Notes under the pieces: generated by a model
The model's input: only the letters and a program-made list of their open reading frames with translations
Told to the model about the DNA's origin: nothing
The model's database searches: none
In this document: positions 3,181-3,783 of the stretch, one piece after another
Position numbering within the stretch: position 1 is the stretch's first letter
How the letters are laid out: each line of letters opens with the position of its first letter
Source: Escherichia coli
GTDB lineage: Bacteria; Pseudomonadota; Gammaproteobacteria; Enterobacterales; Enterobacteriaceae
NCBI RefSeq assembly: GCF_003334335.1
Contig: NZ_QOWQ01000066.1
DNA: 9,411 bases
Direction: 5' to 3' (one strand)
Translations under genes and position numbers: made by a program

Positions 3181-3783
3181 ATGAAACAACAGTATCAGAC
3201 CCGCTACGAATGGCTCCACGAAAGCTACCAGAAATGGCTGACCGGCTTCACCCGGCACGCCGTATCCTGGGGCGTGTGTCATCCGAATATCTACTACTTC
3301 CATAATCTGACGCCCGGTTGGGTGTCATTCAATGGTGAAAAACCGGAGATTGCCATCGTACCCCAGAGCCTGCACCGGCTGATTTATGGCCCTGACAAAC
3401 GGGCCACACCGCCCCTGGATGATGATCTGATAGTGAATTTATGCACCAGTGAACATCTGCTGGTTCATCATCCGATGCTGGAAGGCATTCTCCTGTCTGA
3501 ATGTGAACGTCTGAGGCAGCGTTCTCTGGCAAATAAACTGATCAGCCTCTTCCGTCAGTTTGGTGGCACGGAGTTGCGCCTCAAACTAGTCTGGCTTTGC
3601 TGGCTTGATTTAATGACCGGAAACTGCCTTGACGACTGGACGGAGAATCTGAAACGGAAATCAGAAAAAGAGCTGGAGGAATGGATCATCAACCGTCAGA
3701 AGCAGAGCGCAGCACTGACGGATCTGATGGATCAGTACGTGCTCCTGTCATACCGCACAACGGTTGACGATAAGCGCACCTGA
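3181..3783 (+). CDS. Hypothetical protein, ~200 aa, no family recognised; co-directional with alpA
   Basis: ORF 3166..3783 (GTG at 3166; ATG at 3175 and 3181). GAGGA at 3168..3172 gives good spacing only to ATG 3181. Protein-like composition with a C-terminal charged, probably helical segment (ENLKRKSEKELEEWIINRQKQ). Lies 94 bp downstream of alpA. Start codon uncertain (3175 or 3181). Confidence 0.55.
   Translation: MKQQYQTRYEWLHESYQKWLTGFTRHAVSWGVCHPNIYYFHNLTPGWVSFNGEKPEIAIVPQSLHRLIYGPDKRATPPLDDDLIVNLCTSEHLLVHHPMLEGILLSECERLRQRSLANKLISLFRQFGGTELRLKLVWLCWLDLMTGNCLDDWTENLKRKSEKELEEWIINRQKQSAALTDLMDQYVLLSYRTTVDDKRT

Follow-up and report, generated by a model that had tools for sequence, protein, structure and literature searches.

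A previously undescribed protein family encoded behind alpA in the backbone of Enterobacterales chromosomal islands

Several described systems resemble the locus analyzed here. The CP4-57 island of Escherichia coli K-12 is alike in its gene order: alpA comes first, followed by one backbone gene, the gene for the Gp2-like YfjJ, defence cargo (AbpAB, RnlAB) and a block featuring a GTPase, DUF932, antirestriction, RadC and a toxin-antitoxin system. In Pseudomonas aeruginosa, where AlpA is an antiterminator, its binding element is placed within a separate promoter, between -35 and -10, and the terminator tB, upstream of alpBCDE, is a genuine intrinsic one (PMC7969949). The Pseudomonas transfer-messenger RNA (tmRNA) islands, as described in a 2025 study, are characterized by IntY, AlpA, a Gp2-like protein, RadC, defence cargo and jumbo phage transduction, and are reported there to be devoid of recognizable transfer machinery (PMC12595487). 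The present analysis concerns a 9,411-nucleotide stretch of E. coli DNA (contig NZ_QOWQ01000066.1 of assembly GCF_003334335.1), indicated below as the window, and in particular one of its genes, the target, located at 3181..3783 on the + strand and coding for a 200-aa soluble protein of the Aec62 family. The target is a fixed backbone gene of widespread chromosomal islands of Enterobacterales, the variable cargo of which is located outside the fixed two-gene unit formed by the target and an AlpA/TorI-type gene.

The gene immediately preceding the target, alpA (2880..3086, + strand), codes for a 68-aa AlpA/TorI-type helix-turn-helix (HTH) protein. RefSeq names it "helix-turn-helix transcriptional regulator" or, in some genomes, "AlpA family regulator"; its homologues in homologous loci carry the PF05930 Phage_AlpA domain. 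The window product matches excisionase/regulator families in PHROGs; in a sequence search of the PDB, run with E up to 1, its only matches were 8c3t, an "AlpA family phage regulatory protein", and TorI (1z4h). From the alpA stop at 3086 to the target ATG at 3181 there is a gap of 94 nt, on the same strand. The constancy of this arrangement was evaluated by taking one genome per species from 100,044 species: 30 loci were obtained, designated below, like the other fetched loci, by an "L" followed by a number. An alpA homologue is found directly upstream of the target, on the same strand, in 28 of the 30, the spacer being 55–100 nt long, mostly 91–100. As to the remaining two, a zinc-ribbon gene lies between alpA and the target in L033, and L018 is cut 200 nt upstream of the target and cannot be judged. 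In complete E. coli genomes the target is present in 3419 out of 5426 (~62%), at a median of two places per genome, with nearly all copies being chromosomal; the stretch including both alpA and the target is colinear in 3338 of them. Phage records contain the target in a single, doubtful case out of 50,697, and plasmid records in 9 out of 72,556, several of which are megabase- or chromosome-sized: given this near absence from both record sets, a phage or plasmid origin was discarded.

A set of four small backbone genes recurs in these islands, although not always in one order: it consists of alpA and the target, together with a Gp2-like gene and with zinc-ribbon (DUF7828) genes, of which there are one or two. 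In the window, the Gp2-like gene (YagK/YfjJ, rolling-circle initiator-like; PHROG 25019), named "inovirus Gp2 family protein" in RefSeq, is found at 692..1297 on the - strand; the zinc-ribbon gene (DUF7828/Zn_ribbon_11-type), a "putative zinc ribbon protein" according to RefSeq, is at 61..438, also on the - strand. The Gp2-like gene is a near neighbour of the target in most loci and, in other genera, carries PF11726 or PF23343; zinc-ribbon neighbours in other loci carry PF25165/PF11682. The usual order, in most genera, is a GTPase block on the - strand, then alpA, target, Gp2-like and zinc-ribbon genes on the + strand, then the cargo. In the window-type order, the 5' part contains zinc ribbons and the Gp2-like gene, both on the - strand, a small open reading frame (ORF) and an Hha gene or its remnant, and the 3' part contains alpA and the target, both on the + strand, then a gene of about 305 aa or YfjI, then the GTPase and Ag43, again on the + strand. 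Compared with the order of other genera, what is inverted in these window-type E. coli islands is exactly the alpA–target pair, as one unit, with respect to both the Gp2/zinc-ribbon block and the GTPase block (window 2880–3783, compared with L005 7699–8600 and L048 8697–9600). That the two genes, with the spacer between them, form one functional cassette is well supported by this inversion. Inverted repeats flanking the pair, which might explain the inversion, were sought in the window and none was found.

Genes located further away behave differently. An identical target protein, P0059, is found within the same backbone, followed by different genes past the zinc-ribbon gene. One strand of this backbone features CbtA, CbeA, RadC, antirestriction, DUF932 and, further on, the GTPase and a 304-aa gene; the other strand features alpA, the target, the Gp2-like gene and the zinc-ribbon gene. 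Two versions of the variable part were seen: one with a fimbrial operon and a gene for a transporter of the major facilitator superfamily (MFS), the other with genes for an SNF2 helicase, an AAA protein, an S8 peptidase and a DNA methylase. Furthermore, the pairwise divergence of the target follows that of the backbone GTPase (r = 0.83, with a partial r of 0.75 once AlpA is controlled for). Because the adjacency to alpA is constant, the same protein is found with varied cargo and its divergence tracks that of the GTPase, the target is assigned to the fixed skeleton of the island; its presence and identity do not vary between similar islands, as those of cargo would. Defence systems begin past the Gp2-like and zinc-ribbon genes, where those exist: beyond the module, Dnd is found in Yersinia and Pantoea, BREX in Klebsiella, and LlaJI/McrBC-type systems in the most divergent branch. 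The initial annotation, made from the window sequence alone, had placed the gene in a cargo position and suggested a variable, accessory or anti-phage function. This is not supported, in view of the 28 of 30 loci with adjacent alpA, of the different cargo accompanying P0059 and of PADLOC, in which no family matches the target at E <= 0.1; a backbone gene, taking part in the life cycle of the island rather than in its cargo, is by far the more probable alternative.

The position of several defence clusters outside the module was recorded: SNF2, AAA, S8 peptidase and methylase genes in L049 (11156–18600), LlaJI/AAA_5 in L042 (13973–16597), DndBCDE in L002 (8794–16594), where the other strand carries a large gene for a DUF87 ATPase, and BREX, followed by a GmrSD-type gene, in L005 (9772–16600).

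The target is a real gene and not a chance ORF, as judged from its full-length homologues, low ratio of nonsynonymous to synonymous substitution rates (dN/dS), preserved reading frame and confident AlphaFold2 model. The ORF list reports a + strand ORF, ending at 3783 and beginning with a GTG at 3166; the ATG at 3181 was chosen as start, since it matches the alignments with homologues from other genera and the RefSeq start (L001 12082–12684, corresponding to window 3181–3783; WP_000813451.1, "hypothetical protein"). This ATG is preceded, at a distance of 8 nt, by a Shine-Dalgarno (SD) sequence, GAGGA, at 3168–3172. Among four E. coli alleles dN/dS ranges from 0.15 to 0.32, with dS up to 0.76. 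Full-length homologues, with 22–65% identity, are spread over the genera of Enterobacterales, and aligned members are 174–204 aa long, length being kept down to 22% identity. The frame is intact, and near full length, in most fetched loci. Defective copies also exist: L035 lacks the first ~18 residues and L037 is split by a frameshift, while in L023 and L030 the match to the target profile begins only at position 19. Most of what the initial annotation had read at this position is thus confirmed, namely a real gene of about 200 codons, 94 bp behind alpA on the same strand, with a plausible SD; the charged C-terminus, there described as helical, belongs to a C-terminal half which is also helical in the predicted structure. 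Neither of the findings that would have spoken against a new accessory gene was obtained: homology searches returned no well-characterized family, and the ORF is not disrupted in most islands.

Other ORFs were noticed at the 3' end of the gene. In some islands, short ORFs corresponding to the C-terminal helical bundle only are found directly 3' of the full-length gene (L024 10574–10867; L026 8055–8210). In the window, a 66-codon ORF at 3689–3889, on the - strand, is antisense to the target 3' end; some RefSeq genomes list the corresponding ORF as a hypothetical protein (L045 9811–10008, WP_001333284.1), but it is probably a spurious call.

When the sequence families were searched, the target turned out to belong to its own family only: no described family fits. 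The protein alone has no match in Pfam, even at E <= 10, and none of 33 family members matches any Pfam family at E <= 0.001; no NCBIfam or PHROGs family matches the target, and the best E value in a profile search against PDB sequences is 1.1. The closest Foldseek row in AFDB50 is UniProt Q5K5T0, "Aec62", with 98% identity. The other significant matches are nearly all enterobacterial, and either uncharacterized or arbitrarily named: "malate transporter" and "secretoglobin family protein" are examples of such propagated names. The label Aec62 was reportedly given by Chouikha et al. (2006) to an ORF of AGI-3, the selC-associated island of avian pathogenic E. coli BEN2908. It is an ORF number only, with no attached function, domain or structure. 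A literature search on WP_000813451 and aec62 returned no relevant paper. The impossibility of assigning a family, already expressed in the initial annotation, therefore extends to both sequence and fold searches, none of which gave a functional assignment. The family is small and narrow, being composed of 123 representatives at 50% identity, out of 1.84 billion proteins, or of 251 clusters at 90% identity, the relatives being 189–251 and all unnamed or arbitrarily named. Every named source belongs to Enterobacterales: Escherichia, Salmonella, Klebsiella, Citrobacter, Enterobacter, Cronobacter, Yersinia, Hafnia, Serratia, Pantoea, Pectobacterium, Dickeya, Photorhabdus, Providencia, Morganella and Proteus. 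Within the family, a divergent subfamily (~28–33% identity) is found directly after the Gp2-like gene, or overlapping it, and not after alpA (second copy in L011, and L038–L040): in L011, 12234–12926 is followed by 12914–13624; coordinates also recorded are 13043–13624 in L011 and 8001–8588 in L038.

An AlphaFold2 model of the target, obtained from 33 sequences, has a predicted local distance difference test score (pLDDT) of 87.0 and a predicted template modeling score (pTM) of 0.86. It features a long N-terminal helix (8–29), a short helix, a beta-hairpin (43–48, 56–61), a linker and a six-helix bundle (99–193). The median isoelectric point (pI) is 6.7, near-neutral, and the grand average of hydropathy (GRAVY) is negative in nearly all members, pointing to soluble proteins. 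Invariant residues are Q17, G31, L43, P61, L64, G102, L104, E107, R110, L111, L120, L139, C140, W141, L144 and Y186, and the family signatures are G[IV]L[LI]SEC.RL and LLCW.[DE]L; no known catalytic motif was seen among these few residues in the alignment of the members. A metal site, formed by C33, H34, H96 and H97 of close homologues, was considered and rejected, as these residues are lost in divergent members: among histidines and cysteines, C140 is invariant, C108 nearly so, and no others are kept.

The spacer between alpA and the target contains a two-tier stem-loop (3111..3152, + strand), located in the target 5' leader and identified from minimum-free-energy folds and pair counts. In the window, the outer stem is formed by GCAGCAGA/TCTGCTGC (3111–3118 with 3145–3152) and the inner one by CCGG/CCGG (3127–3130 with 3135–3138). 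It is followed, at 3153..3180, by a tail, CTGTTATAT, conserved in the alignment across genera, and by the SD; in other genera the tail reads CTGT[CA]ATTT. The 3' half of the spacer is nearly invariant across genera, in contrast with flanking proteins which are only ~50–60% identical. A 13-mer in the 3' arm, TTCTGCTGCCTGT, has a single occurrence in each of the 22 loci containing it, invariably at a short distance before the target; in L033, where alpA is parted from the target by a zinc-ribbon gene, the hairpin element remains with the target, immediately before the SD. When 29 leaders of various genera were folded, the two-tier architecture had the minimum free energy in most of them. In the outer stem, the 3' arm is conserved, and the 5' arm varies by lineage yet stays complementary, other pairs of arms being GACAGGCAG/CTGCCTGTC, CAGCCAG/CTGGCTG, AGCCAA/TTGGCT and GCAGCAAA/TTTGCTGC. 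RNAalifold, run on MAFFT alignments, missed the outer stem, because of register shifts in the variable 5' arm, and folds of single sequences combined with pair counts were used instead: in a sequence-only alignment the whole structure is 75.6% paired, slid controls reaching 39–51%, and both sides are changed in 16 cells; over the 29 sequences, pairing of the inner stem amounts to 89.6%, pair 71–77 being changed on both sides in 7 of them. When the 5' arm is shuffled, the folding energy increases by 1.9 standard deviations on average, with z below -1.5 for 18 of the 29 sequences.

Since the stems accept G-U pairs on the coding (+) strand, the element is read as acting as RNA in the target 5' leader, where it would be an attenuator, a processing site or a stabilizer. 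Rfam contains no match for it, at the gathering score or, within the spacer, even at E <= 5, and no sigma-70-like promoter was found on the + strand between 1600 and 4200, spacer included. A second, alternative hairpin (alignment columns 79–84 with 90–95), which might have supported an attenuator switch, was discarded, as it has no support above shuffled controls. A similar sequence was noticed elsewhere: GCTGTCAT is found shortly after the alpA stop in CP4-57 (L055 5858–5985, the K-12 alpA-yfjI spacer) and in L033 (9356–9478), and resembles the conserved CTGTCAT tail of the target leader, a resemblance which could be due to chance. The CP4-57 alpA-yfjI spacer also holds a hairpin, TATTTCCGC ... 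GCGGAATA.

These features may be combined in a proposal on how the target works. It would be transcribed from the alpA promoter, its expression being set at the conserved two-tier leader hairpin. The protein carries no catalytic signature; Aec62 is proposed as a protein-binding accessory of the machinery controlling the life cycle of the island, that is, its excision and replication. It would couple the AlpA-type excision or regulatory step to the Gp2-like initiator and zinc-ribbon proteins, which in turn would start replication or transfer of the excised island. In CP4-57, the slot of Aec62 is occupied by YfjI (DUF3987), which may play the same role there. A probability of roughly 45% is assigned to this explanation taken as a whole, including a backbone unit with alpA, leader-gated expression and a life-cycle accessory function. 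Its most specific part, an accessory role in excision or replication, is tentative and less likely than not. A further step is a rather unlikely extension: Aec62, as a control protein with a new fold in a very common type of defence-carrying island of Enterobacterales, would set, jointly with the leader hairpin, the moment at which the island, once excised, is copied or passed on for transfer; in one version of it, Aec62 may guide the Gp2-like nickase to an origin within its own leader, or next to it. Should this be true, apparently immobile islands would gain a defined mobilization mechanism.

A number of observations weigh against a life-cycle unit built around alpA and the target. In the window-type arrangement, the pair and the Gp2-like gene are on different strands, and co-transcription of the pair with that gene is therefore not required. 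No Aec62 homologue was found in CP4-6 and CP4-57 of K-12, indicating that such islands can exist without Aec62; this absence probably explains why the protein was never studied. The histories of the two genes are discordant: between the window and L045, dS is 0.058 for the target and 0.45 for alpA, while the reverse pattern is found with L046 (0.38 for the target, 0.046 for alpA), which is taken as a sign of recombination between the two genes, perhaps with the conserved leader as recombination point. The divergence of the target correlates with that of AlpA with r = 0.59, falling to a partial r of 0.26 when the backbone is controlled for: co-evolution, considered as a possible sign of contact with AlpA, is thus weak. 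Discordant histories and weak covariation together argue against a tight, specificity-determining contact with AlpA. Finally, a scan for terminators revealed only a weak terminator-like site in the leader, at 3137–3153, and the conserved hairpin has a poor U-tract, probably too poor for a standard terminator.

Other explanations were weighed against the proposed accessory of the island life cycle. The target might be an accessory or cargo gene, such as a single-gene anti-phage or phage-interference protein behind alpA: the islands clearly carry defence systems, interference with phages is known for backbone genes of satellites, E. coli genomes contain multiple copies of the gene, and the protein, like many defence proteins before it, has no assignment and a new fold. 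The place and presence of the target, constant while the cargo varies, its evolution in step with the backbone GTPase, the lack of a PADLOC match and its near absence from phage (1/50,697) and plasmid (9/72,556) records make this explanation improbable. It appears comparably improbable that Aec62 is a regulator acting on transcription (an anti-silencing factor, an anti-repressor or a modulator of AlpA), which switches on an H-NS-silenced backbone and does not act on DNA replication. Neither an HTH nor any other DNA-binding domain was detected in the protein, the pI of which is neutral, and outside E. coli nothing ties it to H-NS or Hha; a regulatory role would nevertheless agree with the likely expression of the target together with the regulator of the island, with the Hha-family genes adjoining the pair in E. 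coli versions of the island, and with a predicted helical bundle which, having no catalytic residues, would suit a binding role.

The leader itself could work as DNA. Nick sites, both in rolling-circle and in transfer origins, usually consist of an inverted repeat and, after it, a short stretch of high conservation; by analogy, the hairpin and its CTGTCATTT tail might be an origin of transfer or replication, nicked by the Gp2-like protein, with Aec62 as a relaxosome-like accessory recognizing it. The element is nearly invariant in sequence across genera, Gp2-like initiator genes are its constant neighbours, and the islands hold genes typical of conjugative leading regions (antirestriction, DUF932, RadC). 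RNA, however, fits better, as the G-U pairs of the + strand would be mismatches on the other strand; moreover, the element is always in the transcribed 5' leader and stays with the target start codon, and the protein is near-neutral rather than basic. An origin of this kind is regarded as slightly less probable than a cargo or regulatory role. Still a little lower is the likelihood of an addiction module, similar to toxin-antitoxin systems, in which the HTH protein is both antitoxin and autoregulator, and Aec62 a growth-inhibiting effector stabilizing the island. A small HTH gene followed by a larger unknown one, a pair which stays together through inversion and which is widespread and multi-copy on mobile DNA, might suggest such a module. 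The structured spacer of ~95 nt is at odds with the overlapping or closely abutting genes usual in type II pairs, and the co-adaptation expected there is not seen (partial r of 0.26 with AlpA); alpA and the target recombine independently, the divergent subfamily has no adjacent alpA, and the islands already feature CbtA/CbeA. That the ORF is a decaying, non-functional remnant may practically be dismissed: frameshifted or truncated copies do exist (L035, L037 and several fragment clusters), against which stand a dN/dS of 0.15–0.32, a length kept at 174–204 aa down to 22% identity and a confidently predicted structure.

Some further features of the window are reported here. Between the GTPase gene and the start of agn43, at 7808–8044 on the + strand, Rfam identifies an IS102 RNA (RF00124), scoring 67.8 bits versus a gathering score of 46; in CP4-44 of K-12, this site is occupied by the IsrC small RNA (sRNA). 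The end of the window thus appears to have the yeeP-isrC-flu arrangement of CP4-44. At 4006–4045, where the target and yfjI converge, there is a perfect inverted repeat of 17 bp, with a loop of 6 nt (TTCATCACCGATATTCA ... TGAATATCGGTGATGAA) and no U-tract, which may serve either for bidirectional termination or for the binding of a protein. The 321-nt spacer holding it is found in 1180 E. coli genomes, versus 3419 for the target gene and, among the fetched loci, the repeat is present only in L001, which also has yfjI. A frameshifted remnant of the Hha/YmoA family, ~70% identical to the intact hha of L047, lies at 2016–2149 on the - strand, within a 1.1-kb stretch without long ORFs upstream of alpA; in related E. 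coli islands hha is either intact or partial. Two stretches of ~1.1 kb, 5660–6780 and 1700–2880, each contain no ORF over ~95 aa: the former precedes the GTPase gene, at a place where other E. coli islands hold a gene of 305–340 aa, and the latter precedes alpA.

Islands of this type, with P4-like integrase, AlpA, Gp2-like protein, GTPase, antirestriction, RadC and CbtA/CbeA, are found in most E. coli genomes, and the cargo observed in the loci described here includes fimbriae and adhesins (for instance Ag43) in addition to Dnd, BREX and restriction systems. Little is understood of the way in which such islands are activated, replicated and mobilized. Aec62, which is as constant as AlpA and has no known relatives, may reasonably be considered a candidate for a part of this missing machinery. 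The aec62 gene would also provide a clean marker for the backbone of the islands and for the inner edge of their cargo region. Since different defence clusters lie beyond it in different hosts, the block formed by alpA, aec62, Gp2-like and zinc-ribbon genes could mark one edge of a defence hotspot. Should Aec62 turn out to be no more than a minor regulator, the practical benefit would be a better annotation for several thousand entries now named "hypothetical protein".

The comparison with known systems may now be completed. The likeness with Aec62 (Q5K5T0) is that of members of the same protein family, at 98% identity. For TorI of KplE1 and the directionality factors of AlpA/Xis type, the likeness concerns the neighbouring gene and not the target: it is the alpA product that matches TorI in the PDB and the excisionases in PHROGs. 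No directionality factor is known to work with an Aec62-like partner. The AlpA/tB/alpBCDE system of P. aeruginosa is similar in that a gene named alpA is followed by a leader hairpin, located before the regulated gene (PMC7969949, PMC9371919); it differs from the window, where no promoter was found in the spacer and the hairpin has no good U-tract. The P. aeruginosa element GGGACGN5GGTA (PMC7969949) was not evident on reading the window spacer. With the Pseudomonas tmRNA islands, the locus shares a tyrosine integrase, AlpA, Gp2-like and RadC genes as probable core, a diverse defence cargo and the lack of recognizable transfer machinery (PMC12595487). They belong to another bacterial order; Aec62 homologues were found only in Enterobacterales, and an Aec62-like gene is not mentioned for them in the passages of the study considered here (PMC12595487). 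As to CP4-57, the slot behind alpA is filled by YfjI (DUF3987, 469 aa), a protein unrelated to the target (homology between the two was rejected, with an hhalign probability below 1%), and the K-12 AlpA was not retrieved by an iterative search starting from the window AlpA. The island as a whole is of an already known kind, the CP4-57/CP4-44 type with a P4-like integrase; what is new is an AlpA-led backbone module, featuring a previously undescribed partner protein and leader element.

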